This document shows positions 5,436 through 63,589 of a DNA stretch of 64,000 bases, one piece after another. Position 1 is the stretch's first letter, and each line of letters begins with the position of its first letter. The stretch comes from Minisyncoccota bacterium (lineage in GTDB: Bacteria; Patescibacteriota; Minisyncoccia; UBA6257; GWB1-50-10), in NCBI GenBank assembly GCA_020059585.1, contig JAGVBU010000008.1, positions 22,163 to 86,162 of the forward strand. The letters are read 5' to 3'. The notes below the pieces were generated by a model. It was not told the DNA's origin, made no database searches, and saw nothing but the letters and a program-made list of their open reading frames with translations. Position numbers and translations under genes: made by a program.

Positions 5436-5459
5436 GAGCTCCTGTATAATAGGAAGTGC

Positions 5460-6170: not shown

Positions 6171-6193
6171 CGCATATGCTATACTGAACACAT

Positions 6194-6649
6194 ATGGATG
6201 ATTCTAAAAAAGATTCCCGCAATATTTTTATGGAACTGGCAAAGGTGCGAACCCAACCAACCCCCATTAGCGTTGATTCCGAGGAAATTTCAAGCGCGCT
6301 TGATATTGATGACGAAATGGAGGGGCAGCTTACTGTGGATGTGTATCAAGATAAAGATAACATCGTTGTACAATCTACCGTTGCCGGCGTTGAACCGGAT
6401 GATCTCGAAATTAACATTACGAACGAATCAATCACTATACACGGACGCCGTGAGAGAAAAGAAACAATCGAAGAAAAAGATTACTTTTATCAGGAGTGTT
6501 TCTGGGGACGTTTTTCAAGATCTATTATTCTTCCCGCGGAGGTGGATTCAGAACGGTCCGTCGCATCGCTAAAAAACGGAGTTCTTACGGTAAAAATGCC
6601 GAAACTCGAACGACGAAAAGCAAAAAAACTCAAGGTAAAAATAGACTAA
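6194..6649 (+). CDS. Hsp20 / alpha-crystallin small heat-shock protein
   Basis: Alpha-crystallin domain pattern (LTVDVYQDKDNIVV ... GVLTVKMPK). Confidence 0.8.
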   Translation: MDDSKKDSRNIFMELAKVRTQPTPISVDSEEISSALDIDDEMEGQLTVDVYQDKDNIVVQSTVAGVEPDDLEINITNESITIHGRRERKETIEEKDYFYQECFWGRFSRSIILPAEVDSERSVASLKNGVLTVKMPKLERRKAKKLKVKID

Positions 6650-6682
6650 AAAACCTCCGCGTAACGCGGAGGTTTTTTTATT
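6648..6682. terminator. Bidirectional rho-independent terminator between convergent hsp20 and murD
   Basis: A-tract, 8-bp GC-rich stem CCTCCGCG/CGCGGAGG with 3-nt loop, then TTTTTTT. Confidence 0.6.
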
Positions 6683-8117
6683 TTTCCCCGAATATTTTTT
6701 GTACAAGCGCGTTGAATTTCTCGCCACGATCGAATTCATTTTTAAATTTCTCGAAACTCGCCGCTCCGGGACTGAATACTACTGTTGAGAAAAAATCTCG
6801 TCGCATCATTCTTTTTTCCACCGCGCGCATCACTCCACGCAAATCACTGAATATCGCGGGGCGATTTTTTTCGAAGTATCTCATCTTATTGAGTGCGTGG
6901 ATCATTTTTTTTGTCGCGCTTCCTCCAAGAAAGAATAGATTTTCGGGAGGAACATTTTTCTTCACGTGCTTTGCCCATTCTTTATATTCAAGATTCTTGT
7001 CGGTTCCGCCTGTAATAAAGATTGTCTGAAAACTTCCAAAACGATTAATCGCGGCAATCGCTCCTTCGGGAGAGGTTGCCGTCGTATCGTTTACTACCGT
7101 GATACCATTTTTTTTAAAAACAATTTCTTGGCGATATTGTATTGCGGGAAGATTTTCCGCGCGAGTCGCAATGTCTTTCCACGTAATTCCCGCGTGATAA
7201 GCGGCAAGTGCCGCGCAAAGAAAATTATACATATTATGATCTCCTCGCCTATGTATCATATCGACAATACTCGGCGAAAAAACCATTTTCTTTTTTCCAC
7301 GTTCAAAAAAGAATACTCCTCGTGAACTTACAGAAAGTCCATTACGCATATTTTGTCCTTCCTTCGAAATAAAGTATATTCGGCTTTTCGGCTTTGTCTT
7401 GAGAAAATACGTGGTCCATGCGTTATCCTTATTTAAAATCAGTATCTGCCTTGAGGTCTGATACTTGAATATATTTGCCTTCGCGCGCGCATATTCGCGC
7501 ATTGAACCGTGACGATTTAGGTGATCTCGAAAAAGATTCGTAATAATCGCAATATCAGGAGTTCTTTTTGTGTTTTCAGCACATTCAAGTTGAAAAGAGG
7601 AAAGTTCAAGGATCGCGGGGATTTTTTTCTTTTTTTCGATACGCGGAAGAAGTTCTAGAAGCGCGTCGCGTGATGAATTTCCGCTCGCTTTCACTCCTGT
7701 ATATTTTCCAGAGAGAAAATGCGCGATCCAATTTGTTGTAGTCGTCTTTCCACGTGTTCCCGTAACCGCAATGACTGGATTTTTCACTTCATTCAAGAAA
7801 ATACCAAGATCATTAATAATTGGAATTCCTTTTTTCTTCGCGCGCGCGAGGAACGCGTTCCCGCGAATACGGACCGCGGGATTCACCACGACGCCATCGT
7901 GTGAAACGAAATCTTCTTTTTCATGTCTCCCGAACACGAAACGTATCTTCCTCCCCCTCAACCCGATTGCTTTGACGGAATCTTTTAAAAGCTCTCTCGT
8001 CCGAAGGTCAGTCACGGTAACCTGCGCGCCGCGCGCGAGAAGCCATCGCACGGTCGCGATCCCACCGCCAAGCGTGCCTAATCCCACCACGAGAATTTTT
8101 TTATTCTTGAAATTCAT
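6678..8117 (-). CDS. murD: UDP-N-acetylmuramoylalanine--D-glutamate ligase
   Basis: N-terminal Rossmann VVGLGTLGGG and Mur-ligase P-loop VTGTRGKTTTT; 479 aa. Confidence 0.75.
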   Translation of the reverse strand: MNFKNKKILVVGLGTLGGGIATVRWLLARGAQVTVTDLRTRELLKDSVKAIGLRGRKIRFVFGRHEKEDFVSHDGVVVNPAVRIRGNAFLARAKKKGIPIINDLGIFLNEVKNPVIAVTGTRGKTTTTNWIAHFLSGKYTGVKASGNSSRDALLELLPRIEKKKKIPAILELSSFQLECAENTKRTPDIAIITNLFRDHLNRHGSMREYARAKANIFKYQTSRQILILNKDNAWTTYFLKTKPKSRIYFISKEGQNMRNGLSVSSRGVFFFERGKKKMVFSPSIVDMIHRRGDHNMYNFLCAALAAYHAGITWKDIATRAENLPAIQYRQEIVFKKNGITVVNDTTATSPEGAIAAINRFGSFQTIFITGGTDKNLEYKEWAKHVKKNVPPENLFFLGGSATKKMIHALNKMRYFEKNRPAIFSDLRGVMRAVEKRMMRRDFFSTVVFSPGAASFEKFKNEFDRGEKFNALVQKIFGEK

Positions 8118-36121: not shown

Positions 36122-37450
36122 ATGCATACTATTAATACACGAATAATCCTTTTCTCCGTTATCGGAGTGGTAGTTCTTATATTTCTTCTTATTCTTTCGG
36201 GTGTTATTCCGGGATTGAAAAGTAACAACCCTAAAACAGAAGGGCCCTCAGGCACGATCAATATGTGGGTGATCCAAGATCGCCAATCTGCATACGAGGC
36301 CGCGATAAAAAAATTTACAGATGTATACCCGGGAATACGCGTATCCTTTAAAACATTTCCAAATGAAACGACGTATCGCAACGCCCTTCTTGAGGGATTC
36401 GCGACAAATCAGGGTCCTGACATATTCCTTGTTGATAACGCAAGCGTGTTGCGTGACGCCAATAAGATAGAACCGCTCCCGAAACAAAAAATGTCCCTTC
36501 TACAGCTTCAGAATTTCTTTCCACGAGTGGTGGAGCGTGATTTTGTGAGTAAGGACGGGCGCATTTTTGGGATCCCTCTTTCTATCGATACGCTCGTCAT
36601 GATATACAACAAGGATATTTTCGATACGGAACAGATAGCAGAAATTCCCAAAACGTGGGAAGAATTCAACGCTATAGTACCAAAAATCACAAAAATAGAG
36701 GGAGGCACCCGCATTACGCGCGCGGGCGCCGCAATCGGGGGATCGGAAAAAAATATCGAACGCGCAAGCGATCTCCTTCAACTTATTATGATGCAATCGG
36801 GAGTATCTATGATGAAAGCATCGCCGTTTTCAGCATCGTTCTCACCCTCTGGAGAAGATGCGCTTCGCTTTTATGTCGGATTTTCAAATGCAAAAAACAG
36901 CGTATATACATGGAATTCGATCATGCCCTCCGCCATCGACTCGTTTGCGGAAGGAAAAACGGCGATACTTTTTGATTACGCATCATCACTTGATACGATA
37001 AGGAATAAAAATCAGTGGATACACGCGGGCATCGCCCCAGTCCCATATCCCGCGCAAACTAAATGCCAGAACGAATATGAATGCCGTACCGCGTATGCTC
37101 GCTATTACGGGTATACCGTCTCAAAACAAAGCGAATTAAAGAGTGTCGCGTGGGATCTCGTACTCTTTATGACGACTCAAAGCGATACCGCGGGCGATTA
37201 TATGACTAAAACAAAAAAACCTCCCGCGCTCAGATTCCTGATAGGACAAACATCCCAAGATCCCGAACTTGGAGTGCAGGCCGCGCAAGCGCTTATTGCA
37301 AAATCATGGCAGCAGCCCGATCGCGATGCGGTATCCTCTCTCTTTTCTGAAGCAATAGATCTCGTGATCTCAGGAAAAAAAGATGTCTCTTCCGCGCTCC
37401 GCCAGACGCAGGACGGAGTGAATCAACTTATAAAAGAAAAAGGATTATAA
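36122..37450 (+). CDS. Extracellular solute-binding protein (ABC-type, family 1-like), orphan
   Basis: N-terminal TM/signal anchor and bilobed SBP-like layout; no permease or ATPase gene adjacent. Confidence 0.5.
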   Translation: MHTINTRIILFSVIGVVVLIFLLILSGVIPGLKSNNPKTEGPSGTINMWVIQDRQSAYEAAIKKFTDVYPGIRVSFKTFPNETTYRNALLEGFATNQGPDIFLVDNASVLRDANKIEPLPKQKMSLLQLQNFFPRVVERDFVSKDGRIFGIPLSIDTLVMIYNKDIFDTEQIAEIPKTWEEFNAIVPKITKIEGGTRITRAGAAIGGSEKNIERASDLLQLIMMQSGVSMMKASPFSASFSPSGEDALRFYVGFSNAKNSVYTWNSIMPSAIDSFAEGKTAILFDYASSLDTIRNKNQWIHAGIAPVPYPAQTKCQNEYECRTAYARYYGYTVSKQSELKSVAWDLVLFMTTQSDTAGDYMTKTKKPPALRFLIGQTSQDPELGVQAAQALIAKSWQQPDRDAVSSLFSEAIDLVISGKKDVSSALRQTQDGVNQLIKEKGL

Positions 37451-37463
37451 TATTCGATATACT

Positions 37464-37952
37464 ATGAGAAAAAATATCATTCTTCTTTTCATCGCCGTAC
37501 TCGTTGTTATTCCTCTTTCCGCGCACGCGTTATCATTTGATATCTGGGAAAACACCGAAAAGACGATTACTTATGCAAGCGGAACAATGAGAGCAACAAC
37601 CACTGAAAACTGCAACATAGTTGGATCGTGCAATCTCTGCGATGCTCTTCAGGTTTTCAAAAACATCGTGAATATACTTTTCACAATCGCAATACCTCTT
37701 GCGGTTGCGCTCATTATATATGGAGGCATACGCATTATGACGGCAGGAGGATCCGAACAAAACGTAGCGGAGGCGAGAAATATAATCACAAGCGCGCTTA
37801 TCGGTCTCGCAATCGCCCTCGCGGCATGGATGATTGTGAGTGTCGTCATCTCGGTTATTGCTCAATCAAGCTTTCCCACAACCACGGGGAGTACGATTGA
37901 TTTTAAATTTTGGAATAATATCGATTGTACCGTATCCCCGCAGATAAATTAG
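37464..37952 (+). CDS. VirB2/TrbC-like pilin paralog 1
   Basis: Signal peptide then two hydrophobic helices flanking a conserved GGSEQNV loop. Confidence 0.5.
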   Translation: MRKNIILLFIAVLVVIPLSAHALSFDIWENTEKTITYASGTMRATTTENCNIVGSCNLCDALQVFKNIVNILFTIAIPLAVALIIYGGIRIMTAGGSEQNVAEARNIITSALIGLAIALAAWMIVSVVISVIAQSSFPTTTGSTIDFKFWNNIDCTVSPQIN

Positions 37953-37975
37953 AAAAATTGTTTTATAATAAAGTT

Positions 37976-38320
37976 ATGACTCCGAGAAAAAAAATAGTTT
38001 CGATTGCGTGGGGAGGTCTTGCTGCCCTGCTTATAGCTCCATTGAAAGCGCGCGGCGCGCAGATACGGCTTGAAAATCCTTTGAGAACCGACGATCCTAT
38101 CGAGCTTCTGGGATCTATTGTGGATTGGCTCATTATTGCGGGTGCCCCAATCGCGGTTGTTATGGTTATATATGGCGCCTTCCAAATTATGACCGCGCAA
38201 GGAGATACCGAAAAATTCACTTCAGGAAGAAAAACAATTGTGTACGCCATCGTCGGCTATGGTATAATTATTTGCGCATGGGGCATCGTTGCGGTCATCC
38301 AAAGCGTATTAGAGGAATAA
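37976..38320 (+). CDS. VirB2/TrbC-like pilin paralog 2
   Basis: Same topology as paralog 1; loop motif QGDTEKF. Confidence 0.5.
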   Translation: MTPRKKIVSIAWGGLAALLIAPLKARGAQIRLENPLRTDDPIELLGSIVDWLIIAGAPIAVVMVIYGAFQIMTAQGDTEKFTSGRKTIVYAIVGYGIIICAWGIVAVIQSVLEE

Positions 38321-38364
38321 GCCCCGGAAAGGTCGAGAACAGAAACATCATATATATTTATTAT

Positions 38365-38733
38365 ATGTCAAAGAAACTCACTATAATTGTCGCGTCTGCG
38401 CTTGTTCTTTTGCCTGTCCTTGTGGGAGCTCAGGGAGGTGTCACGGTTCCCGACGCATCTCAAACTATTTTGGCGGGAGGGTATCAGGGAATTGCCGATA
38501 CGCTTTCCACGATCGCGAACTGGATGCTTGGTGTTCTCCTTTTACTTGCGGTAATCTTTTTCATCTATGCGGGATTTTTGTATCTCACTTCCGGTGGAGA
38601 GGAAGACAAGGTAAAGAAAGCGAAGGATTTCCTCGTGTACGGACTTATCGCCGTCGCGGTGGGACTTTTAGCGAAAGGTCTTGTTTCCGTTGTCTCAAAC
38701 CTTGTAATAGGAGGAGAGGCTCCGATAAACTAA
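38365..38733 (+). CDS. VirB2/TrbC-like pilin paralog 3
   Basis: Signal peptide; IANWMLGVLLLLAVIFFIYAGFLYLTSGGEEDKVKKAKDFLVYGLIAVAVGLLAKG, closely related to paralog 4. Confidence 0.5.
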   Translation: MSKKLTIIVASALVLLPVLVGAQGGVTVPDASQTILAGGYQGIADTLSTIANWMLGVLLLLAVIFFIYAGFLYLTSGGEEDKVKKAKDFLVYGLIAVAVGLLAKGLVSVVSNLVIGGEAPIN

Positions 38734-38751
38734 TTTCGAATTTATCCGTCT

Positions 38752-39072
38752 ATGAAGAAATTTCTCTATATCCTGTTTTTCCCTCTTGTATTCTTTCCGC
38801 TTATTTCTTCAGCGGCGACGAGCACTATACAGGATGCTCAAGACGTCGTTGATCTCATTACAAAGATAGGAAATTGGATGTACGGGATACTTCTCGGACT
38901 TGCGGTAATATTCATCATCTTTGCGGCATACAATTTCATGACAAGCGGAGGATCTGAAGAAAAAGTGAAAGAAGCGAAAAATCAGGTTCTCTATACGCTT
39001 ATTGCCGTGGCGGTTGCGATGCTTGCGAAGGGATTTATATCGATTATTGAAAGTCTTGTGCTTACGAACTAA
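38752..39072 (+). CDS. VirB2/TrbC-like pilin paralog 4
   Basis: Signal peptide; IGNWMYGILLGLAVIFIIFAAYNFMTSGGSEEKVKEAKNQVLYTLIAVAVAMLAKG. Confidence 0.5.
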   Translation: MKKFLYILFFPLVFFPLISSAATSTIQDAQDVVDLITKIGNWMYGILLGLAVIFIIFAAYNFMTSGGSEEKVKEAKNQVLYTLIAVAVAMLAKGFISIIESLVLTN

Positions 39073-39100: not shown

Positions 39101-39140
39101 GCGTCCGCCTCTCCGTCAGTTGGAGAGGCGGACTCGTTAT
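39101..39140 (+). terminator. Stem-loop terminator after the pilin array
   Basis: 12-bp stem GTCCGCCTCTCC/GGAGAGGCGGAC with 6-nt loop. Confidence 0.5.
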
Positions 39141-39161: not shown

Positions 39162-39243
39162 GCCGAGGTGGCGAAACTGGCAGACGCACTAGCTTTAGGA
39201 GCTAGCACCGAAAGGTATGCGGGTTCAAATCCCGCCCTCGGCA
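39162..39243 (+). tRNA. tRNA-Leu (anticodon UAG), class II with long variable arm
   Basis: 82 nt: acceptor GCCGAGG/CCTCGGC, anticodon stem CTAGC/GCTAG with loop TTTAGGA, extended variable arm, T-arm GCGGG-TTCAAAT-CCCGC. Confidence 0.85.
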
Positions 39244-39265
39244 CAATAAAAACAAAATATCCCCG

Positions 39266-40156
39266 TCACTTTTTTCTCCTTCTTCCATGAAATGCTTTAT
39301 GGATGTCTCTTAGCTCTTTGTTCGTAAGATGCGTATATATCTGCGTTGTAGAAACATTCGCGTGCCCAAGAAGAGACTGGACCGAACGGAGATCGGCGCC
39401 GTTTATAAGAAGGTCTGTCGCGAATGAGTGACGCAACTGATGAGGGTGGATTTTTTTGGGAATTCCCGCCGCGCGGGCATAAAAATCAACAAGACGCTCC
39501 ACCGAACGGGGAGTTATCCGTCCTATCACGTTTCCTGACCTGCTTAAACTTACGAAAAGCGCTTCTTCCGGATCGGTTCTTTTGTCTAGATACTTTCGAA
39601 TTGCTTTTCGCGCGCCCTCAGAGAGAAATACTACCCTAAGTTTGTCTCCTTTTCCCCGCACCGACACCTCACCTCGTTCAAGATCTATATATCGCTTAAG
39701 AGAACAGAGTTCGGAAAGACGGAGCCCCGTAGAAAAGAAGGTTTCAAGGATCGCTTTGTCGCGAAGCGCGCGAAGCGTCTCTCCTTCGGGAGCGCCTATA
39801 AGGCGTTCGAGTTCCCGGTAATCAAGCACCTCAATATCGCGTCTCGATGTTTTTGGTAGTTCTATCCTTTCCGGAGGAAGAGTTTCGTATCCTTGTTTTA
39901 TGAGATATTTAAGAAAATTTCTGATCGCGATCACGTAATATCCCTGCGTGTTTTTTTTAAGTTCTTTCCCCGACAAATGAACGCGAAAGTTTCGTACTTT
40001 TTCCGGAGTAATGTGCGAAAGTTTTCTTATTTTCTGATCCTCGAAAAACGCGAGAAGATACCTACTGTAGTTTTCGCGTGTTTTCCGAGATCTGTTTTTC
40101 TCTATCTCAAGATAATCGAGATACTGCTCAAGAAGTGTATACGCCTCTTCTTTCAT
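39266..40156 (-). CDS. Tyrosine site-specific recombinase, XerC/XerD-like
   Basis: 296 aa; N-terminal core-binding domain (LEQYLDYLEIEKNRSRKTRENY), catalytic R..HxxR..Y set (RDKAILETFFSTGLRLSEL; HQLRHSFAT; IYTHL). Confidence 0.75.
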   Translation of the reverse strand: MKEEAYTLLEQYLDYLEIEKNRSRKTRENYSRYLLAFFEDQKIRKLSHITPEKVRNFRVHLSGKELKKNTQGYYVIAIRNFLKYLIKQGYETLPPERIELPKTSRRDIEVLDYRELERLIGAPEGETLRALRDKAILETFFSTGLRLSELCSLKRYIDLERGEVSVRGKGDKLRVVFLSEGARKAIRKYLDKRTDPEEALFVSLSRSGNVIGRITPRSVERLVDFYARAAGIPKKIHPHQLRHSFATDLLINGADLRSVQSLLGHANVSTTQIYTHLTNKELRDIHKAFHGRRRKK

Positions 40157-46298: not shown

Positions 46299-47282
46299 CT
46301 ACTGAAGCGCGAAAGGATTTTTCGCGCCAAGAACCTCGAAATGCACATGACATCCAGTCACTCCCTCTGTATTTCCGGTATTTCCCAATAGAGCTATTTT
46401 CGATCCTTGCGCCACCACATCACCAACACTCACAAGGTTTTTTGAAGTGTGCGCATATCGCGTGCGAATCCCATTTTCGTGTTCTATAAGAATAAAGTTT
46501 CCATATCCGCTGTTCCATGAATCATCGGAAGATTCATCAACTATCACTCCCGCTGCCGACGCAAATACCGGAGTGCCACACGCGTTCGCGATATCTACCG
46601 CATTCGTCTCGTGAAGTTTTCCCCAATTCCATCCTTTTGCCGGAAGTGTGAAAAATCCTCTGAGCGTGGGGAGTCCTTCTTCCGTTTCTCCCTCGCGTAG
46701 TACTATTCCTTTTTCTTCCGCATCGGGTATTACAATAAACGCGCCCGGAGTTTCAAAAATCTTCTCATATCCCGCGTTGAATGATTTTATTGCCTCCGCG
46801 TTCACCCTGAAAGAACGCGCCACCTCATACAATGAATCTTCCGTGCGTATCCGATAGAGAATCCCCGAGACCGGAGGTATGGGAATCTCCTTTTTCTCCT
46901 CCAACAATTCACTTCCCTCGTTTGCGGATATGATCGTCTCCGCGCTTACTCCAAATTGCGCGGCAACAGACGCAAGAGTGTCTCCCTTTCGTATTTTATA
47001 CATCTTCATGTCGCGCCGTTTCTGATTTTCTTCCGGTACCGCGCGCGATATCCCCGTCAACGTATCACGATATATCACGTCATCAATAGGTGCGGCAGCA
47101 TATTCATTCATCGACATCGCGTCCGCTTGGGGGCCAAAAAATTCCGAAATAGGTCCGCCGGATCCCCATGAAGCGGAGGTGCTTATATATCCCGAAAAAC
47201 CCCCCTCGGGACGGACAAAAAGAACCGAAAATATCAGTGTTCCCCCAAGAAAAAACAAGGACCACCATTCAGTCGTCTTCAA
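46299..47282 (-). CDS. LysM-domain M23 family metallopeptidase (peptidoglycan hydrolase)
   Basis: LysM (YKIRKGDTLASVAAQFGVSAETIISAN) plus M23 motifs HTSKNLVSVGD..GNTGNTEGVTGCHVHFEV. Confidence 0.75.
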   Translation of the reverse strand: MKTTEWWSLFFLGGTLIFSVLFVRPEGGFSGYISTSASWGSGGPISEFFGPQADAMSMNEYAAAPIDDVIYRDTLTGISRAVPEENQKRRDMKMYKIRKGDTLASVAAQFGVSAETIISANEGSELLEEKKEIPIPPVSGILYRIRTEDSLYEVARSFRVNAEAIKSFNAGYEKIFETPGAFIVIPDAEEKGIVLREGETEEGLPTLRGFFTLPAKGWNWGKLHETNAVDIANACGTPVFASAAGVIVDESSDDSWNSGYGNFILIEHENGIRTRYAHTSKNLVSVGDVVAQGSKIALLGNTGNTEGVTGCHVHFEVLGAKNPFALQ

Positions 47283-49584: not shown

Positions 49585-51276
49585 ATGAAAAATCCGTATC
49601 TCAAAATATTTACCTCTTTCTTTATATCGGTGTTTCTCGCAACGAACGTCTTTTTACTTATCCCTCCAAAGCCGGTTCAGGCACAGGGACTTGTCGCTGA
49701 TCTTGCGGAAGCGTGCGTGGGAGGACTCGTAAAAACTCTTCTTGGAGATGAAATTGCGGGAGCTCTGGAAGACGCGGTAGATTGGGCAAAGGGAGCGCTG
49801 GGGCTCAGCGTGCTGGATAATAAGGTCCCCACAGACGATTCAAAAACACAGGGACAGATAAAGCTCTCAACTATTGAGGTGTGTCTCACCGCGGTGAAAG
49901 AAATTGCGATCCGTATCGCGCGGGCAATTTTGAAGAAGCAGCTTCTCGATCAGATTGTTGATCAGACTATCCAATGGATACAGGACGGCACTCAGCCGAA
50001 ATTCGTAGGTAACTTCGGGGAATTCTTCAACGATGCAGTTGATGCGGGAATAGGAGAAACAATACGAGAGATAGGACTCGGAGAATTTTGCGACGGACCC
50101 GTAAAGGCGAAAATACAGATAAACCTCACGAAGCCGGCGCGATTTTATGAACGCGCATCCTGTACTCTGAGCGATGTGGTGGGAAACATAGAGGCATTCA
50201 AGGAAAATTTCAAAAACGGATCATGGATAGGGATTCAGGAGGCGGTAAGTCCCCAAAACAACAGACACGGCATATATCTCCTCGCGATGGAAAAAATGCT
50301 TGAGGAGACCGAGAAAGAGGATAAGGCGGCGCAGGCCGAAATCGTAGGAAGCGGGGGATTCAACGCGCAAAAAACATGCGTGCTCTGGGTGCTTACCGAT
50401 ATCAATAAACGATATCTCGCTGACACAAGCGGAAGTCTTATATATGACTACACTGAGAAAAGCATCAATGATCCGCCGCCACCGCCCGCAAACGCGCCAG
50501 CAGGAAGTACGTTTATCTGCGATCCTATGGGAGAGGTTGTTGTCACGCCCGCAAAAACAATCGGTGATTCCGTATCGAAAGCGGTGACTTCTGATATCGA
50601 CTACATATTGAATGCCGAGGATCTCGAAACGTACGCGAGCGCGATTCTTGATGCCGCGATAAACCGTCTCACGAAAGATGCGGTAACAGGAATCAGAAAT
50701 CTCGGCACCACATCACAATCAGATCACCAACAAAACATAACTAATGCGTCTGGTGAATATAATAATGCGATGAGCGGGCAGAGTCTCGCGGCAGGAATTG
50801 AGGCGGGAGTGCGCGGACAAATTACAGCTCAAGCGAACGGGCTCTCGGGAGGACTCGATCAGGCATCCTCAACTCTCGACGCGATTGCGATCGCGAACGA
50901 AGCGCTTATAAAGGTTCTTGATAATTCAGGGACTCCGCGCGGACTCACTCAATGTATAGCAACCAACGCACAATTCGTGATAACCCCCTCTACATTCTCT
51001 CCGAATGCGGTGCTCTCCGACGCGCTTTCAAGGAAAAACACGTGGATTCCTCAGGAAATACAGAACCTTGCGCAGGCGCGGCAATCAACGGCTCAACTCA
51101 TATCAAATCTCGGCGGAAATTCAATGACGGTGAATATACTTTCCCAGATACTGCAGGGATTACAGGAAACGGTAACTGAGAAAAACGCGGAATATCAATC
51201 CATACTCTCAGAGATTACCGCTGACACGGGCACGGCCACCACAAACAGGGACGCGTGCGGAGGCGGAGGAAATTAA
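49585..51276 (+). CDS. Large secreted protein (hypothetical)
   Basis: Signal peptide (…KPVQA-QG), 563 aa, PPPPPANAPAG linker, C-terminal GGGGN. Confidence 0.4.
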   Translation: MKNPYLKIFTSFFISVFLATNVFLLIPPKPVQAQGLVADLAEACVGGLVKTLLGDEIAGALEDAVDWAKGALGLSVLDNKVPTDDSKTQGQIKLSTIEVCLTAVKEIAIRIARAILKKQLLDQIVDQTIQWIQDGTQPKFVGNFGEFFNDAVDAGIGETIREIGLGEFCDGPVKAKIQINLTKPARFYERASCTLSDVVGNIEAFKENFKNGSWIGIQEAVSPQNNRHGIYLLAMEKMLEETEKEDKAAQAEIVGSGGFNAQKTCVLWVLTDINKRYLADTSGSLIYDYTEKSINDPPPPPANAPAGSTFICDPMGEVVVTPAKTIGDSVSKAVTSDIDYILNAEDLETYASAILDAAINRLTKDAVTGIRNLGTTSQSDHQQNITNASGEYNNAMSGQSLAAGIEAGVRGQITAQANGLSGGLDQASSTLDAIAIANEALIKVLDNSGTPRGLTQCIATNAQFVITPSTFSPNAVLSDALSRKNTWIPQEIQNLAQARQSTAQLISNLGGNSMTVNILSQILQGLQETVTEKNAEYQSILSEITADTGTATTNRDACGGGGN

Positions 51277-55203: not shown

Positions 55204-55704
55204 ATGGCAACCTTTCAAGTTCCCCAATTTATAGATCAGAAACCGAAAATCGTAGGTCCCCTTACGCTCCAGCAATTTGCGTTTGTCGGAAGCGCGGCGC
55301 TTCTCAGTTTTATCTTCTATTACACATTTGATACGTTTCTCTGGATATTTTTTTCCATTGTTCTTGGATCAATCGCCCTCCTCCTCGCGTTCGGAAAAGT
55401 GAACGGGCAGGAGGCAACCATCGTCCTGAAATCCCTTTTTAAATTTCTTCTTGAGCCCAGGCTTTTTCTTTGGGAAAAAAACTTCTCCGAGAAAAAAAAG
55501 GAAGAGTCAGCGGAAAGTATCGCATCGGTCAGAAACACAATGAGCATCCAGCAGAAACTCAAATCGATAACACTGAACATAACGACGGGGAAGGCGTTTT
55601 CACCAAAAATATCCCAAGAAACGCAGAAAAAGGAGGGCTTCCAAGTGGCTACATTTTCCACCGGAGAGAAAAAATTTGTAAAAAAAGTCGACTACAGCGA
55701 ATAG
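55204..55704 (+). CDS. PrgI/VirB3-like small membrane protein
   Basis: N-terminus MATFQVPQFIDQKPKIVGPLTLQQFAFVGSAALLSF then a second TM, matching the PrgI-family signature and position immediately upstream of VirB4. Confidence 0.5.
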   Translation: MATFQVPQFIDQKPKIVGPLTLQQFAFVGSAALLSFIFYYTFDTFLWIFFSIVLGSIALLLAFGKVNGQEATIVLKSLFKFLLEPRLFLWEKNFSEKKKEESAESIASVRNTMSIQQKLKSITLNITTGKAFSPKISQETQKKEGFQVATFSTGEKKFVKKVDYSE

Positions 55705-55746: not shown

Positions 55747-56400
55747 ATGCCACCAAAGAGCCAACCAGACGCAAAGCCATCACAAGAATTTGTTGCGGTG
55801 AAGAAAATACACGATGGCGTTCTCTACCTGAAAAAGGGTGGAATTTGCCGCGTACTTATTGTAAGCGGGATTAATTTTGATCTGAAATCAGAAGCGGAAC
55901 AAAATATGATACTTTCAAGTTTTCAAAATTTCCTCAACACCCTTGACTTCTCCGTCCAATTTTTCATCCACTCAAGAAAAGTAAATATTGAAGAATACAT
56001 GGAGAAAATGAAAGAACGGAAAGAGCAGGAAACAAATGAGCTCCTAAAAATACAAATCGAAGAATACATGAATTTTATACAATCCTTCGTTGATCAAAAT
56101 GATATTGTGACAAAATCCTTTTTCATTGTGGTGCCCTATGAATCAGTACACGTCGTCAATCAAGCACGGGGAGTATTGTCCCTCTTCAAAAAATCAGCCC
56201 CCCAATCCACGGAAACTATCGCCCAAGAGGATATACAACAATTAAACCATCGGGTGGATCAGGTAACCCTAGGACTCGAGCAAATAGGTCTCCGCGTAGC
56301 CCCTCTCGAAGACGATGAGCTTCTCGAGTTGTTCTACAACCTTTACAATCCTCGCCTCGTCGAAAAAAAAGGACTTGAGTTGTCACATAAAGAAAAATAA
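55747..56400 (+). CDS. VirB4/TraE-family N-terminal domain, separate ORF
   Basis: 217 aa resembling the N-terminal domain of Gram-positive VirB4 (VAVKKIHDGVLYLKKGGICRVLIVSGINFDL...); TAA stop 4 nt before the ATG of the ATPase ORF. Confidence 0.55.
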   Translation: MPPKSQPDAKPSQEFVAVKKIHDGVLYLKKGGICRVLIVSGINFDLKSEAEQNMILSSFQNFLNTLDFSVQFFIHSRKVNIEEYMEKMKERKEQETNELLKIQIEEYMNFIQSFVDQNDIVTKSFFIVVPYESVHVVNQARGVLSLFKKSAPQSTETIAQEDIQQLNHRVDQVTLGLEQIGLRVAPLEDDELLELFYNLYNPRLVEKKGLELSHKEK

Positions 56401-56404
56401 CACC

Positions 56405-58147
56405 ATGCCCACACCATATACCCCCTCGTCAGAAGATCTTCCAAATATTATCGCTCCCGCGGGAATAGAGGTAAATTCCAATTATCTTAAAATAGGGGAT
56501 TATTACGCTAAAACATTTTTCATATTCACATATCCGCGATACATCTCAAGCGGATGGTTCTCTCCCATACTTAATCTTTCCGAAATGATGGATATCTCCA
56601 TTTTTATGCATCCAATGGATACCGCGCTGACACTCCGCAATCTCACAAAGAAAGTTGCTCAAATAGAGGCGGAAATGAATGAAAAACAGGACAAAGGAAT
56701 TGTCCGCGATCCAGTGCTTCAGACCGCGCATGAAGACGTCGAGTCACTTCGCGACGCGATTCAACAGGCACGGGAGAAGTTATTTCAGGTTGGAGTATAT
56801 ATCACTATATACGGAGCCGATATAAAGAAGTTGGAACAACTCCAGAATAAAGTTGAATCAATGCTTGAAAGTAAGCTTGTTTATATAAAACCAGCGCTTT
56901 TCAGGCAGATTGAGGGGATGAACACCACATTTCCTTTCGCGAAAGATGAGCTTTCCGTTCTCACCCCTCTCAATTCAGGTCCCGCATCGTCTCTTTTTCC
57001 CTTTATATCTCCCGATCTTTCTTCCGAAAAAGGCGTTCTTTTCGGGGTAAATATGCACAACAACAGCCTTATCATCTTTGATCGTTTTTCGCTTGAAAAC
57101 GCGAACTCAGTCATCTTTGCAAAATCAGGATCCGGAAAATCATATTCCACAAAATTACAAATACTCAGATCCCTTATGATGGGAACAAACGTTGTGGTGT
57201 TGGATCCTGAAAATGAATACAAAAACCTTGCGGATGCGATTGGGGGAAGTTATTTCAAAATATCACTCACATCGGAAAGTCATGTGAATCCATTCGATAT
57301 TCCTGTTATTCCAGAGGGTGAGGATCCCGCTGACGTATTTAAATCGCACGTATTAAATCTTGCTGGACTTCTTAAATTAATGTTCGGAGAAATCACTGCG
57401 GAAGAAGAATCTATTATCGATCGTGTGCTTATAGAAACCTACGCGTCACGTGATATTACCGCCGAAAATTTCGGAGCAACGAGGGAATTAAATCCTCCAC
57501 TCCTCGAAGACCTTCAGGTGGTACTCGAAAACACCGAGGGAGGATCAGCGCTCGCGAAACGCCTTGAAAAATATACCCGCGGATCATATGCGGGATTCAC
57601 AAACGTCCCCACGAACGTTGATATTAAAAACAGACTTATCGTGTTCTCGATCCGCGATCTCGAAGAGGAGCTCCGCCCCATCGCGATGTATATTATCTTG
57701 AACTTCGTGTGGAATCTCATTCGTTCAGAATTAAAACAGCGTATTCTCGTCATTGATGAGGCGTGGATAATGATGAAAAACAAAGACAGCGCGTCATTTC
57801 TCTTTGGACTCGTAAAAAGAGCACGGAAATATTATCTCGGCGTGACGTGTATTACGCAGGACGTGGAGGATTTCCTCAAATCAGAATACGGGAAGCCTAT
57901 TATAACAAATTCCTCAATGCAGATTCTCCTCAAACAATCGCCGACAAGTATTGATTCTGTAGGAAAAACCTTCAATCTCACCGAAGGGGAGAAGGCTTTT
58001 CTCCTTGAGTGCAGCGTTGGAGAAGGATTGTTTTTTGCGGGAATGAAACATGTTGCGATAAAAATAATTCCCTCATACACCGAAGACCAGATTATCACCA
58101 CCAATCCGGAACAGATGCTTGCGATAAAAGGCCTCACTCAGCGATAG
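56405..58147 (+). CDS. VirB4/TraE-family type IV secretion ATPase, C-terminal ATPase portion
   Basis: YLKIGDYYAKTFFIFTYP signature, Walker A FAKSGSGKSYST, Walker B RILVIDEAWIMM, C-terminal CagE/TrbE region. Confidence 0.75.
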   Translation: MPTPYTPSSEDLPNIIAPAGIEVNSNYLKIGDYYAKTFFIFTYPRYISSGWFSPILNLSEMMDISIFMHPMDTALTLRNLTKKVAQIEAEMNEKQDKGIVRDPVLQTAHEDVESLRDAIQQAREKLFQVGVYITIYGADIKKLEQLQNKVESMLESKLVYIKPALFRQIEGMNTTFPFAKDELSVLTPLNSGPASSLFPFISPDLSSEKGVLFGVNMHNNSLIIFDRFSLENANSVIFAKSGSGKSYSTKLQILRSLMMGTNVVVLDPENEYKNLADAIGGSYFKISLTSESHVNPFDIPVIPEGEDPADVFKSHVLNLAGLLKLMFGEITAEEESIIDRVLIETYASRDITAENFGATRELNPPLLEDLQVVLENTEGGSALAKRLEKYTRGSYAGFTNVPTNVDIKNRLIVFSIRDLEEELRPIAMYIILNFVWNLIRSELKQRILVIDEAWIMMKNKDSASFLFGLVKRARKYYLGVTCITQDVEDFLKSEYGKPIITNSSMQILLKQSPTSIDSVGKTFNLTEGEKAFLLECSVGEGLFFAGMKHVAIKIIPSYTEDQIITTNPEQMLAIKGLTQR

Positions 58148-59260: not shown

Positions 59261-60490
59261 ATGAAAACGTGGCATAAAATACTCATCATAGTAATCCTTC
59301 TCGGTATCGGAATTTTCGCGCTATTTTATTTCTTTAATAAGATAGCCGTCCCCGTCCCCATAGAGGAATCGCAGGGTGTTCTTTTTCCTGGATTTGAAAA
59401 AAACGGAGGCACCCAAGGGTTGGGGGATGTAGGGAGTCCATCCACGGAAAAAACTGCCGTACTCTCGAAAATATCAGACGTGCCTGTATTTGATTTCTGG
59501 ATATCGAAAGACACGGGAGAGTTGTATTACATCACCAACAAAGGAAGGATTTTTTCTGGGAAGGACGGATCTGATATCGATATGAATACTCAGGAACTCA
59601 GCTCCCTGAATATGATTATCCCAAGCGAAACAGGAAAGAAAATCATCGCGTCTTTCGGGGATCCGCAGAAACCCCGCTGGGGAGTGTTTGATGTTGTTGA
59701 TGGGGTGTGGAAGCCTCTTTCTGATAAAATAACTTCCGCCATGTGGGGGAAGGATGAGGATACGCTTATAGGAACCATTCAAAATGAAGATGGACATTCG
59801 ATCGCGTCTTTTGATATTTCAAAAAATCCCATAAAAAGCTCCGTCATCCTTAAGGATTTTCGGATAAAAGATGTGTCATTTTCATGGAAGAATCCCGACT
59901 CAATAATGATTCTTGAACGCTCAAGCGCGACAATAAAAGGGCGTCTTTGGGAGTTTAATACAAAAAATCTTCTCGTAAAACAGGTAGATCCCGGAACAAG
60001 CGGGCTCTCATTTCTTTGGAGCGCATCCAGAGAGTACGCGCTTAGATTTTCAAATCCAAACAATCTCCTTGTGCTTAATGGAAATCTCGAACCGGTAAAT
60101 CCTCTGACTATTACCTCCATCCCTCAAAAATGCGGATTCAGTGAGGACGCGCTCTATTGTTTTATCCCGCAGGATACCGACTCTTTTTTGGAATTCTCGC
60201 TTCCTGATGATTATTTCCAGAATAAATTTTATTCCACGGATACATTGATCTCTATCAATCTCGAAACCGATAAGATGGAAACGCTTCTACAAAGCGGTGT
60301 GGGAAATTTTTCTCCGATTGACGGACGGCATCCGCGGGTACACGAAGGAGATGTATTTTTCGTGAATAAATATGACTGGTTCGTGTATCGCGTCCATATT
60401 TCAGAAGAGGGAGAGGGACTAGAAAAATCTAATGAAGTAAACCAAAACGAAGAAAACCAAATTTACAATGAACCTTCCCCGTTTAATTAA
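59261..60490 (+). CDS. Membrane-anchored extracytoplasmic protein (hypothetical; possible beta-propeller)
   Basis: N-terminal TM anchor (ILIIVILLGIGIFALFYFF), 409 aa, repeated beta-strand-like segments. Confidence 0.35.
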   Translation: MKTWHKILIIVILLGIGIFALFYFFNKIAVPVPIEESQGVLFPGFEKNGGTQGLGDVGSPSTEKTAVLSKISDVPVFDFWISKDTGELYYITNKGRIFSGKDGSDIDMNTQELSSLNMIIPSETGKKIIASFGDPQKPRWGVFDVVDGVWKPLSDKITSAMWGKDEDTLIGTIQNEDGHSIASFDISKNPIKSSVILKDFRIKDVSFSWKNPDSIMILERSSATIKGRLWEFNTKNLLVKQVDPGTSGLSFLWSASREYALRFSNPNNLLVLNGNLEPVNPLTITSIPQKCGFSEDALYCFIPQDTDSFLEFSLPDDYFQNKFYSTDTLISINLETDKMETLLQSGVGNFSPIDGRHPRVHEGDVFFVNKYDWFVYRVHISEEGEGLEKSNEVNQNEENQIYNEPSPFN

Positions 60491-61919
60491 ATTTATTGTA
60501 CTTTTCGCGTGTGTGGCGGTGTTTTTTACGCCTGCGGTGTTTGCGCAAACCCCCATCACGATTGATACTACGTTTCTCACTCCCGATACAAACGCTTCGA
60601 GCGTCCCACAATTCATATCGAAATTTTATGAGCTCGGACTCGGTATTGCTGGTATTATCGCGGTCGGGATGATTGTTGTGGGCGCAATATTTTACACAAT
60701 ATCAGGCGCAAGCCCTCAGAAAAAAGGGGAGGCAAAAGATATTATTTTTTCGGCCATATGGGGGGTAGTGCTTCTTTTCGGCTCGTATGTAATATTGAAA
60801 TCAATAAACCCTCAACTTATAGAGCTCCGCGATCCAGGAAGCGGTCTTGGGGGAGAATTGCCGAGTCCTATGGATACAGGAAACTGTTCTTCAACAACTC
60901 CTATTGTTGATATAAATGGAAATCCAAATCCAAACGGGGCGACCTTAAATCCGTGCGCTGAAGGAGAACCACCAATAAATCCGGAGACAGGATACTGCCA
61001 ATGTTACAAAAGAGAAATAGCACCCATAGCGTGTCCCATCGAACTTGAGCCTGTCTCATATAGAAACAACGATGGAAGTCTCCCGACATATCGATGGACG
61101 ATGTCAGGAGAAAAAGTAAATTCAACAAATACGCACCCCCCAGGAAGAACAAGTGCTGGTGACAATATATGCGCGAGGAAGGTTCTTATTCCTGAGCACA
61201 CCGACTTCTACACTGTTGATTGCGATCCGTGTGAAGAGGGATGGCCGAGTAGTGGGTTCTTTGGTTATGCGGACGATGAACACAACTTCGAAAAGAACAC
61301 CACAGGATGGGTGTGGCCGTACTATCCTAAACTAGCGGGAGGTTCCGCTGAAACAGCACCACAGTACGCGCTTTGCGTGATGTATGCCTACTATGATCCT
61401 GAAGACGAGGAGATTGTCCGCGCGGATCTCGATGGATTGAAACCTTGTGTTGAATTTTCCTCATCCACACCAAGAGCAACAGGGAATTACGAGCAAGCTG
61501 GGTGGGAATCAAGAAATAACGAGATTCTCCAAAGATTACAAAACGCCGGTATATCTGTCACAAGTAGTGGAAATTGCGGAGATCCGAACAATCCTAGTTG
61601 CACCAATGTTGGGGGGCTCCCTGATTATGCCGTCGATCAGATTATCTATATAAAACAGAATTGCAACTGTGAGGTGAGGGTTACAGGGGGAGCTGAGACA
61701 GGACACCAATCACACGGATTAAACCGTCCTGTGTTTGATCTTGCATCAAATCAGACGCTTGCCCAATATCTCTTCAATAATCGAACAGGAAATGGGCTTG
61801 GTTTCGTCCAACAAATATGCACTACAAACGCATACAGCCAGTATCGATTTAATTGTGGAAGTTACACCGAAGCACAAGAACACCTCCATGTGAAAACTGG
61901 AATAAATTGGAGTCCTTAG
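60468..61919 (+). CDS. VirB2/TrbC-like pilin module fused to a ~370-aa Cys-rich extracellular domain
   Basis: N-terminal 115 aa repeat the pilin-paralog topology and loop motif (TISGASPQKKGEAKD); C-terminal domain has 16 Cys and a possible HxnD...ExxH metal-site pattern. Confidence 0.5.
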   Translation: MNLPRLIKFIVLFACVAVFFTPAVFAQTPITIDTTFLTPDTNASSVPQFISKFYELGLGIAGIIAVGMIVVGAIFYTISGASPQKKGEAKDIIFSAIWGVVLLFGSYVILKSINPQLIELRDPGSGLGGELPSPMDTGNCSSTTPIVDINGNPNPNGATLNPCAEGEPPINPETGYCQCYKREIAPIACPIELEPVSYRNNDGSLPTYRWTMSGEKVNSTNTHPPGRTSAGDNICARKVLIPEHTDFYTVDCDPCEEGWPSSGFFGYADDEHNFEKNTTGWVWPYYPKLAGGSAETAPQYALCVMYAYYDPEDEEIVRADLDGLKPCVEFSSSTPRATGNYEQAGWESRNNEILQRLQNAGISVTSSGNCGDPNNPSCTNVGGLPDYAVDQIIYIKQNCNCEVRVTGGAETGHQSHGLNRPVFDLASNQTLAQYLFNNRTGNGLGFVQQICTTNAYSQYRFNCGSYTEAQEHLHVKTGINWSP

Positions 61920-61922
61920 TTA

Positions 61923-61950
61923 CAAAAAACCGCCCTTCGGCGGTTTTTTA
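61923..61950. terminator. Bidirectional rho-independent terminator between the cluster and jag
   Basis: A-tract, stem CCGCC/GGCGG with CTTC loop, then TTTTTT; overlaps the jag stop codon. Confidence 0.55.
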
Positions 61951-62376
61951 TTCGATCCTCCGTATCACCACTCTCCTTTCCTTTCCCTCTCCCGTGCTTT
62001 CCGTACGAAGCTCAGGATGGGTTGCTATTTCCATATGGACAAGTCTTCGCTCATATCCATTCATAGAAGGAAGTTCTACGTCCTGCTTTGTAATTATTGC
62101 TTTTTTCGCGGCCGCGCGCGCGAGTTCTGATATTAGGCGCTCCCGCTCTTTCCGATAATAATTCACGTCAATCACAAACGGATTCTGTTTTTCCTTTCTG
62201 AAGATAAGCCCAAGAAGGTGATCGAGCGCAGGAAGAAATGTGGTCACATTTTCAGAGACAACCCTATCTTCGATCATAAAGGATATTTTTCTATGTTCCT
62301 CATCGATGTGTGTTTCCACACCTTGGAACCCTCCAAGTTCCACTATTTTTTTAACTTTTTCGAATAATTCTTGCAT
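61948..62376 (-). CDS. jag: RNA-binding protein Jag/KhpB (KH + R3H)
   Basis: C-terminal R3H signature (LPSMNGYERRLVHMEIATHPELRTESTGEG); conserved position next to yidC. Confidence 0.75.
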   Translation of the reverse strand: MQELFEKVKKIVELGGFQGVETHIDEEHRKISFMIEDRVVSENVTTFLPALDHLLGLIFRKEKQNPFVIDVNYYRKERERLISELARAAAKKAIITKQDVELPSMNGYERRLVHMEIATHPELRTESTGEGKERRVVIRRIE

Positions 62377-62386
62377 AGTGACAATG

Positions 62387-63070
62387 TTATTTTTTCTCCG
62401 TTGCCGACTTCTCGTTTATCTTCTTATTGATGTATACCTGCTGGCCTATAGAGAACAGCGTAGAGACTATCCAATATACACCAAGCGCGGATGGAAGGGA
62501 AAAGAGTATTACAAGCGTGATTGCGGGCCCTATTATCACCATCATCTTTCCTATGGACGCCGCGGGATTGTTATTCCCCGATCCCGCAGTCGCAAGCGCC
62601 ATTTTCCCCTGTATATATTGGAGTCCCGCGGCAATAACCGCGAGGACAACACTCTTCTCACTAAGATTAATTAAGCCGAAAAGAGCGACGCTGTCAAACG
62701 CGACGTTCGAGAGTTCGCGAGAAAATATCTGGAAAAGCGCGAGAAAAATAGGAAGTTGCACAAGAAGGAGAAGGAATCCCGAAAATGGATTCAGGTTGTT
62801 TTCTTTATAAAGCGCCATTAAAGCCTGCGCCTGCGCCTCCTTGTTTCCCTTGAATTTCTCCTGTATCTCTTTCATCTTCGGTTGTATCTTCTGCATTAGC
62901 GTCTGATCTTTCGCGCTTTTATAGAAAATAGGGAAAAGGATTATCCTTGTGGCAATCGTAAGTATCGCGATGGCGATTCCCAAATCGTGGAATGCCATGT
63001 TTTCATATATAAAAACAAGCGCCCCAAGTATCGGTGCGTATATATACACGTGAAATATATTAGATATCAT
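62387..63070 (-). CDS. yidC: Membrane protein insertase YidC, short form
   Basis: 227 aa with 5 TM helices and conserved YidC/Oxa1 core; rnpA-yidC-jag synteny. Confidence 0.8.
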   Translation of the reverse strand: MISNIFHVYIYAPILGALVFIYENMAFHDLGIAIAILTIATRIILFPIFYKSAKDQTLMQKIQPKMKEIQEKFKGNKEAQAQALMALYKENNLNPFSGFLLLLVQLPIFLALFQIFSRELSNVAFDSVALFGLINLSEKSVVLAVIAAGLQYIQGKMALATAGSGNNNPAASIGKMMVIIGPAITLVILFSLPSALGVYWIVSTLFSIGQQVYINKKINEKSATEKK

Positions 63071-63074
63071 GGTA

Positions 63075-63350
63075 TCAGAGTCTAGGAAAGTCTTTCTTCA
63101 ACTCCTCGAATGATACCATGCGAGCTGCGGGTTTTACAACAACACAGTACGATCCTTGTATTTTTCCGATTGATCGAAAAATCGCGCGCACCCTTCTTTT
63201 CAGGAGATTGCGCGTTACCGCTTCTTTTGCGACATTTTTTGATACAGAAACAAAAAACGGCTTCTTTCCGCCGCGTACCCTATGTATAGCAAAAAACCTC
63301 GTGGTGATTACACCGAAAGCTTCTTTCTTCCCTTTGCTCGGCGGCGTTGC
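63075..63350 (-). CDS. rnpA: RNase P protein component; 5' end unresolved
   Basis: Conserved RnpA core GKKEAFGV...[38 protein letters not shown] aligns with the RNR-box region of bacterial RnpA; no canonical start codon between the conserved N-terminus and the rpmH stop. Confidence 0.6.
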
Positions 63351-63442
63351 AGCACATTCTTTCCCCCTGGAGTTCTCTTTCGCACGAGAAATCCGTGTGT
63401 TTTCTTTCTTTTTCTCTTGTTTGGTTGGTATGTTCTTGACAT
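63308..63442 (-). CDS. rpmH: 50S ribosomal protein L34
   Basis: Hand translation of the minus strand gives [44 protein letters not shown], a complete L34; it lies in a different frame inside the 151-aa ORF-track entry 63075..63530. Confidence 0.85.
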
Positions 63443-63448
63443 AATCCA

Positions 63449-63457
63449 TTATCCACA
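63449..63457. promoter_or_regulatory. Perfect DnaA box TTATCCACA in the divergent rpmH/dnaA intergenic region
   Basis: Exact match to the consensus 9-mer, 7 nt upstream of rpmH and ~130 nt upstream of dnaA. Confidence 0.5.
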
Positions 63458-63499
63458 ATTCATCAACAATTAAATCACATATCTCTTTCCAAATCAATA

Positions 63500-63527
63500 T
63501 TGAAACAGTGTAGAATAAGGGTATCAT
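63500..63527 (+). promoter_or_regulatory. Candidate dnaA promoter
   Basis: TTGAAA (-35), 16-nt spacer, TATCAT (-10). Confidence 0.35.
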
Positions 63528-63589
63528 CAATACATGCTGTGAAGAAAAAGTTTTTCGACACGCATCACTTTGATCGTATTTCTAAACGT

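Follow-up and report, generated by a model that had tools for sequence, protein, structure and literature searches.

Why would a bacterial chromosome carry four divergent genes for one kind of small pilin side by side, and do such genes supply the parts of a single machine or a choice of interchangeable surfaces? We addressed this question in a window of 64,000 nucleotides, the whole stretch of DNA analysed here, from contig JAGVBU010000008.1 of the Minisyncoccota bacterium assembly GCA_020059585.1. An earlier note on this DNA had read four consecutive open reading frames (ORFs), called P1 to P4 below, as tandem VirB2/TrbC-like pilin genes of a type IV secretion system (T4SS). That reading holds: the four genes and a fifth module elsewhere in the window match the family PF18895 (T4SS_pilin), and the locus resembles published arrays. 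We conclude that P1 to P4 are paralogous PF18895 VirB2-like pilins which probably work with a chromosomal T4SS, most likely as non-redundant components of one assembly. The argument starts from what the following sections demonstrate: the family to which the proteins belong, how they are built, their setting beside a T4SS, and how they have been conserved and selected.

Much of bacterial diversity falls within the Patescibacteria, whose members live attached to other microbes. The locus described here is of an already known kind, a typical Paceibacteria example and not a discovery. A survey that applied PF18895 and PF04956 to 3,035 Patescibacteria genomes reported 441 arrays of 2–11 VirB2-like pilin genes in 383 assemblies; members of one array were 25% identical on average and 54% at most (Quiñonero-Coronel et al. 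2025, Microb Genom, PMC12102498). In Southlakia epibionticum ML1, an array of 6 VirB2-like pilins is essential by transposon sequencing (Wang et al. 2023, Cell, PMC10633639), and a 2025 review calls it remarkable that these six proteins are "structurally conserved but sequence-divergent" (PMC12857230).

Architecture of the array genes

The four ORFs had been described as 106–162 amino acid (aa) proteins with a common signal peptide and two-helix architecture, and every element of that description is present after correction of two start sites (Table 1). The mechanical ORF of P2 begins with a TTG codon at position 37925 and spans 131 aa; its start was moved to the ATG at 37976. For P3 the mechanical ORF begins at 38125, and the N-termini of orthologues (MSKKL.../MFKK...) favour 38365. 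The N-terminus is basic in all four proteins, and Kyte-Doolittle profiles show three hydrophobic stretches in each, corresponding to the h-region of a signal peptide and two transmembrane (TM) helices, the latter connected by a short polar loop. Candidate signal-peptide cleavage sites with small residues at −3 and −1 are found in P1 (AHA/LS, the slash marking the cut), P3 (VGA/QG) and P4 (SSA/A or SAA/T), and the site in P2 is less canonical. An AlphaFold2 model of P4 contains a signal helix (residues 3–23) and a hairpin of two helices (29–63 and 69–105) at a mean predicted local distance difference test score (pLDDT) of 82.6. On direct reading, no prepilin motif of the class III leaders found in type IV pilus and Flp pilins is present in P1 to P4, which instead have type-I signal peptides followed by two more TM helices.

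The inter-helix loop had been reported to carry the motif T/SGG-E/D-EKVK-AK in each copy. An exact form, TSGG-E/S-E-D/E-KVK-x-AK, occurs in P3 and P4 only, and the motif is degenerate in P1 (TAGGSEQNVAEAR) and P2 (TAQGDTEKFTSGR). P3 and P4, said to be alignable with one another, are 44% identical over 113 aa, and the remaining pairs within the array are 23–36% identical. P1 is the longest member and has N- and C-terminal extensions, predicted to be extracellular, with 4 conserved Cys. The conservation of these Cys in the P1 lineage suggests a specialised first-position subunit, and we speculate that P1 is of a minor or tip type. The first gene of an array is usually the longest one: it encodes 162 aa here, and stop-to-stop ORFs of 275–319 aa stand in this place in some relatives (the arrays at loci L012, L016, L019 and L054 included).

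Membership in the T4SS_pilin family

Against Pfam, P1 to P4 scored 45–52 bits with PF18895 (E 1e-12 to 1e-13), all above the gathering threshold of 26.6 bits, and no other family in Pfam or NCBIfam exceeded its cut-off for any of the four. A search of the whole 64 kb with a hidden Markov model of the family recovered exactly five modules, the four array genes and the N-terminus of a 483-aa protein encoded from position 60468, where a fifth copy had been predicted. The family is large, with 110,432 representatives at 50% identity (E ≤ 1e-3). Nearly all homologues retrieved carry PF18895, and some additionally carry PF04956. Public precomputed annotation already assigns PF18895 to identical proteins on public contigs; for P4, an identical protein is present on 9 of them, including one from the NCBI metagenome-assembled genome GCA_020724625.1.

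Many Patescibacteria-type proteins were also encountered in which a single signal peptide precedes 2–17 PF18895-like hairpin modules in tandem (P0148, P0153, P0156 and other top family matches). Examples are a protein of 606 aa with 7 modules and one of 1775 aa with 17 matched stretches, and such multi-module single polypeptides are the strongest matches to the family. In these poly-pilin lineages the array is fused into a single polypeptide. By Rosetta-stone logic, fusions of this kind argue for different modules acting side by side.

Conservation and selection across relatives

Seven assemblies with 89–98% nucleotide identity have the four genes in identical order and are colinear, with no inversions. 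More distant relatives, in which P4 is 65% and 48% identical, likewise have four genes in the same place. In loci L006, L007 and L008 reciprocal best matches pair P1 with P1, P2 with P2, P3 with P3 and P4 with P4; orthologues of P1 are 73–84% and 36% identical, and those of P2 79–95% and 45%. The pilin genes could be mapped colinearly down to ~72% GyrA identity. Ratios of nonsynonymous to synonymous substitution (dN/dS) range from 0 to 0.11 for the pilins and are similar to those of neighbouring genes; in more distant comparisons the pilins and the adjacent solute-binding protein (SBP) have changed about equally fast. Differences in P1 between strains are concentrated in its signal peptide, the pattern that a cleaved leader would be expected to give.

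Among Patescibacteria loci fetched with GyrA, 19 of 42 have an array starting 1.3–3.7 kb downstream. Its copy number is 4 in the closest relatives and otherwise 5, 3 (mostly Wolfebacteria), 2 or 6–8 (Moranbacteria-like); no array was found at the non-Patescibacteria loci in the same scan, which were mostly from Gammaproteobacteria. The comparison of the array across relatives, which the earlier note had suggested, found no rearrangement and no difference in gene number among the seven strain-level assemblies, and slow change in copy number between lineages. The four paralogues are, as far as these alignments reach, old positional orthologues under purifying selection. Because these orthologues are separate, ordered and under purifying selection, and because modules are fused elsewhere, the four proteins are most likely non-redundant and are unlikely to be interchangeable antigenic variants.

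Table 1. Positions in the window of the pilin array, its flanking features and the genes of the T4SS cluster.
Feature	Coordinates	Strand	Basis or remark
Membrane-anchored orphan solute-binding protein, SBP_bac_1/SBP_bac_8	36122–37450	+	Pfam match
P1 pilin paralogue	37464–37952	+	162 aa; PF18895 45.4 bits
P2 pilin paralogue	37976–38320	+	114 aa from ATG; PF18895 49.2 bits
P3 pilin paralogue	38365–38733	+	122 aa from ATG; PF18895 45.8 bits
P4 pilin paralogue	38752–39072	+	106 aa, minimal module form; PF18895 51.6 bits
Perfect 13-bp-stem hairpin closing the array	39103–39133	+	Sequence; inverted repeat I10; fold z = −5.7 vs shuffles
tRNA-Leu(TAG), neighbour outside the system	39162–39244	+	ARAGORN
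Xer-type tyrosine recombinase	39266–40156	−	Phage_integrase and SAM_1 domains
First conserved gene of T4SS cluster, 563 aa, secreted or anchored	49585–51276	+	No Pfam match; 572-aa counterpart at equal position in Jorgensenbacteria L093
Polytopic VirB6/TrbL-like channel protein, 719 aa	51290–53449	+	51% identity to L093 protein carrying PF19590 TrbL_3
PrgI/VirB3-like	55204–55704	+	PF12666 36.1 bits
VirB4 N-terminal TraC-like domain, own gene	55747–56400	+	TraC_F_IV 26.9 bits
VirB4 ATPase-domain gene	56405–58147	+	P-loop_TraG 100.6 bits, AAA_10, DUF87
Three conserved T4SS-cluster genes, 128, 229 and 409 aa	58154–60490	+	No Pfam match; L093 counterparts 131, 232 and 390 aa
483-aa pilin-fusion protein	60468–61919	+	PF18895 35.3 bits at N-terminus

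The T4SS cluster and its chromosomal setting

As the earlier note had it, the array is physically separate from the ATPase cluster, at 16.7 kb upstream of virB4. The TrbL_3 orthologue, PrgI and the split VirB4 lie 12–19 kb downstream of the array, and the whole cluster 9–23 kb downstream. The 719-aa VirB6/TrbL-like protein of the window has no direct Pfam match and was assigned through its Jorgensenbacteria counterpart (locus L093; Table 1). The locus has what the published definition of an array names (PMC12102498): at least two pilin genes in tandem or with one gene between them (here four adjacent ones), a VirB4 (55747–58147) and high divergence, here 23–44% identity. Neither a relaxase nor a coupling protein turned up in the window, in which the sole FtsK-like protein has FtsK alpha and gamma domains.

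VirB4 is split into adjacent genes in different frames, one for a TraC-like N-domain of ~220 aa and one for an ATPase of ~580 aa. The ATG of the ATPase gene lies 4 nt past the preceding stop, and its mechanical ORF begins at 56315. Jorgensenbacteria L093 has VirB4 divided in the same way (223 and 587 aa; 5252–5923 and 5926–7689), and this conservation in a relative shows that the split is not a sequencing frameshift. A protein with LysM and Peptidase_M23 domains is encoded two genes upstream of the cluster (46299–47282, minus strand); VirB1-like proteins with M23/LysM domains have been tied to virB4 specifically in Paceibacteria (PMC12102498).

In the window the cluster is bracketed by KsgA and Jag/YidC/RnpA. 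Its gene content and position are those of an origin-proximal, monoderm-type T4SS, with the layout published for Paceibacteria. The genes jag-yidC-rnpA (61948–63530, minus strand) directly follow the cluster. In L093 (11709–16153) dnaN-dnaA stand between the T4SS cluster and rnpA-yidC-jag, on the plus strand. The region of the presumed origin of replication has thus been inverted or otherwise rearranged between the two genomes.

The larger ORFs scanned all encode housekeeping proteins, among them a class-I aminoacyl-tRNA synthetase, MurD, H+-PPase, NusA, FtsK, RecA, SHMT, FtsH, GyrA, S15, PNPase, KsgA and Jag/YidC/RnpA, and the G+C content is even across the window. GyrA is 93% identical to that of SKS1.bin17 (a partial match), 86% to Ca. 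Paceibacter sp., 80% to Ca. Jorgensenbacteria and ~65% to Wolfebacteria. By these markers the window is part of the chromosome of a bacterium of the class Paceibacteria, within the Patescibacteria (candidate phyla radiation, CPR).

A fifth module fused to a putative extracellular domain

The 483-aa protein consists of a signal peptide, a pilin hairpin (residues ~45–113), a Cys-rich region and a C-terminal domain of ~145 aa, and was modelled at a pLDDT of 74.5. Its homologues number 25 (P0123–P0147), 20 of which carry PF18895. In alignments of 18 homologues, H416, D424, H472 and H474 of the C-terminal domain are invariant. They form the motif H-x7-D...H-x-H, and some homologues contain "SxHYKGxxAD", reminiscent of the LAS/M15 zinc peptidases. 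A peptidase of this type was considered for the domain and was not corroborated by profile or fold searches, so that the resemblance is kept as a lead only. In Pfam the domain gave nothing except a faint HH_signal match on one homologue (E 0.15), and a sequence search of the PDB gave nothing. Foldseek against PDB and BFVD aligned the helical part only, and tblastn against phages returned no match.

Flanking genes and the end of the array

The SBP gene ends 13 nt before P1 begins and is probably co-transcribed with the array. An SBP gene stands immediately 5′ of the pilin array in L001–L008 and at nine of nine more distant Paceibacteria loci (L010, L019, L020, L022, L031, L036, L037, L041 and L070), and the adjacency persists where another gene parts SBP from gyrA. 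In the window the protein is TM-anchored; in Moranbacteria-like loci it has a lipobox-like LFSGC. Its flanks here are gyrA and the pilins, and genes for an ABC permease or ATPase do not adjoin it; the scan of the window did not extend to every ORF.

Downstream of P4 we located, in the order previously described, a strong hairpin, tRNA-Leu and a tyrosine recombinase. No T-run comes after the stem of the hairpin, and a terminator scan made no call there; the structure may be a terminator or a processing signal. The recombinase scores 255 bits with XerC and 244 bits with XerD, is above the NF040815 cut-off and keeps its position in relatives. By score and position it is a housekeeping neighbour, neither a mobile-element integrase nor a pilin switch.

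Directly after tRNA-Leu, five close strains (L001–L005) have ~170 extra bases that are absent from the window (39230–39247, compared with 6480–6683 in L001). At the boundaries of this insert 17 nt of the tRNA 3′ end are imperfectly repeated (cccgccctcggcacaat / cccgctctcggcacaat), and within it stands a hairpin and then a T-run. The difference resembles an att-type scar, or else a deletion that ran from one repeat to the other.

Comparison with known systems

The closest counterparts are the published Patescibacteria arrays (PMC12102498), with which this one shares family, tandem arrangement, a copy number (4) within the range of 2–11, low identity and chromosomal location. In both cases the T4SS is MPF_FATA-like, lacks a relaxase and is encoded close to the origin of replication, and nothing essential differs. 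The published arrays are most abundant in Microgenomatia and Saccharimonadia, whereas this one is from Paceibacteria. It also sits behind gyrA and SBP, at its distance from virB4, and the text of the survey makes no mention of a solute-binding linkage. S. epibionticum similarly combines structurally similar, sequence-divergent VirB2-like pilins with a Gram-positive-type relaxase-less T4SS. Its 6 pilins are inside the T4SS cluster; here, 4 are in a separate operon and one fused module is inside the cluster, all known from sequence alone.

The VirB2/TrbC/TraA pilins of Gram-negative bacteria resemble P1 to P4 in size, Sec signal peptide, a helix-loop-helix with a small basic loop and association with VirB3/VirB4/VirB6 homologues. 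They differ in that sequence similarity is marginal, the host here is monoderm and several paralogues replace one major pilin. In Bartonella and Anaplasma phagocytophilum, tandem divergent virB2 genes also lie by a T4SS in a host-dependent bacterium. The presumed role of those copies is in antigenic variation or host range, whereas we find stable orthologues under purifying selection. Finally, the protein described by NF045849 ("Mbov_0395 family pilin-like conjugal transfer protein") of Mycoplasma integrative and conjugative elements is likewise small, pilin-like and made of two helices, belongs to an MPF_FATA-type T4SS of monoderms and matches all five modules weakly over the whole hairpin. 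It is single-copy on a conjugative element, in contrast to a chromosomal array.

A proposed assembly and the evidence that weighs against it

How might the four proteins work? Sec would export each pilin, and the type-I signal peptide would be cleaved. The mature protein of ~80–140 aa would form a helical hairpin in the membrane, N-out/C-out, with the short Gly/Lys-rich loop inside. A VirB4-powered machine would then recruit the subunits, and the resulting T4SS-associated structure, extracellular or spanning the wall, would be a pilus or conduit in contact with the host cell. The paralogues may have distinct roles, for example P3/P4-type proteins as bulk subunits and the decorated P1 and divergent P2 as minor or specialised ones.

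Several observations weigh against a classical pilus built in this way. The first concern ancestry. The profile search suggested by the earlier note placed the proteins in PF18895 but not in PF04956 (TrbC/VirB2), which only P2 matches (21.3 bits, E 3e-4), below the threshold of 27.9 bits; precomputed PF04956 matches do exist on some orthologues (P2 and P4 of L007). When a 68-sequence alignment of the family was compared by hhalign with 4 genuine VirB2/TrbC sequences (from Ti, pSym and Acetobacter plasmids; Agrobacterium/Sinorhizobium/Acetobacter), the probability was 3% (E 0.013), the aligned stretch being the topologically equivalent segment that leads into and includes the first TM helix. 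A family sequence profile run against all PDB chains found no pilin, only designed helical proteins. Foldseek with the P4 model gave nothing below E 1 in the PDB and listed generic helical hairpins, among them, at rank 16, the Aeropyrum conjugation pilus 8dfu (E 2.7). The result is non-specific: a two-helix hairpin is too generic for Foldseek to speak for or against VirB2 homology. On these scores we place P1 to P4 as PF18895 members and putative work-alikes of VirB2, with a weak link to TrbC/VirB2 proper.

Other points concern function and sampling. Since the array is outside the T4SS cluster, what ties it functionally to that system is the family of its proteins, together with the fifth module. 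Formation of a filament by PF18895 proteins is proposed and unproven; for the S. epibionticum pilins the 2025 review terms it an "intriguing possibility" (PMC12857230). T4SSs of monoderms normally have no pili, and the VirB4 lineage is akin to one such pilus-free group, the monoderm MPF_FATA systems (PMC12102498). Covalently concatenated modules are hard to square with a classical one-subunit helical pilus and could instead reflect an assembly embedded in the membrane or wall. As to the comparative data, the selection analysis covers few genomes, and the 100% identity of P4 in L001–L006 is biased by the way in which those loci were retrieved.

Alternative explanations

Some of the same observations would be explained if PF18895 hairpins oligomerised in or just outside the membrane as components of a channel or stalk, without a long filament. 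We hold this to be possible, though unlikely. All five modules match the Mycoplasma model NF045849, at 18.6, 24.6, 29.2, 35.5 and 20.2 bits, every one of which is below the curated cut-off of 40 bits. The kinship of VirB4 to systems without pili agrees with a channel, fused polyproteins of 4–17 hairpins suit a fixed bundle better than a polymerising subunit, and the fifth module could be read as the membrane anchor of a large secreted domain. The working model of the field is, however, a pilus-like conduit (PMC12857230), and the sequences fit channel and pilus alike.

A further idea takes its lead from the SBP gene. Together with ordered, non-redundant hairpins, the SBP might form a hetero-oligomeric conduit that works with the T4SS and imports host-cell molecules, in place of a conjugative or effector-export pilus. 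The poly-pilin proteins of other lineages fit this idea too; we consider it improbable.

About as doubtful is a device for variation, in which the paralogues are alternative major subunits that are used singly or exchanged for surface variation or for matching to host strains. Divergence of the paralogues, differences between lineages in copy number downstream of gyrA-SBP (2, 3, 4, 5 or 6–8), the Bartonella/Anaplasma virB2 analogy proposed in PMC12102498 and the tyrosine recombinase gene adjoining the array all speak in its favour. Each paralogue, however, has its own conserved positional orthologue, dN/dS is not above that of neighbours and pilin divergence approximates that of the adjacent SBP. 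Repeats around the pilins occur only at chance level, with neither long DNA repeats nor cassettes nor inverted repeats at the flanks. Nor was a separate sigma-70-like promoter detected for the pilin genes, which are packed tightly behind gyrA-SBP. A shufflon or invertible pilin switch was rejected on the chance-level repeats, the seven colinear assemblies and the Xer-like recombinase. Of the two meanings offered in the earlier note, surface or antigenic variation is thus left without support by stable orthologues, purifying selection and the lack of inversions, and a heteropolymeric set fits better.

Finally, the notion that P1 to P4 belong to an unrelated two-TM family (holin, bacteriocin immunity or small membrane protein), or are cargo of a mobile element marked by tRNA-Leu and an integrase, can draw on their small size and two TM helices, on the tRNA gene and recombinase after the array and on the 170-bp strain indel, at whose boundary the tRNA 3′ end recurs, but is very improbable, given that Pfam, NCBIfam and PHROGs held no holin, immunity or other two-TM family above noise (PHROGs E ≥ 0.03) and PF18895 is the only family above cut-off. 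An integrated mobile element at tRNA-Leu was rejected for the array on the basis of conserved synteny with housekeeping flanks (gyrA, rpsO, PNPase), uniform G+C content and the lack of a relaxase or coupling protein among the genes found in the window.

Implications

We therefore return to P1 to P4 as most likely non-redundant parts of one T4SS-associated assembly. To the published arrays the present comparison adds ordered, old orthologues under purifying selection, the linkage to an SBP gene and the multi-module fusions. These three points narrow the possibilities towards a multi-component assembly, and the same three lead away from antigenic variation. In the single species tested, the chromosomal T4SS and its pilin array are essential, and effector delivery, a conduit for signalling and the uptake of nutrients or DNA have been proposed as their roles.

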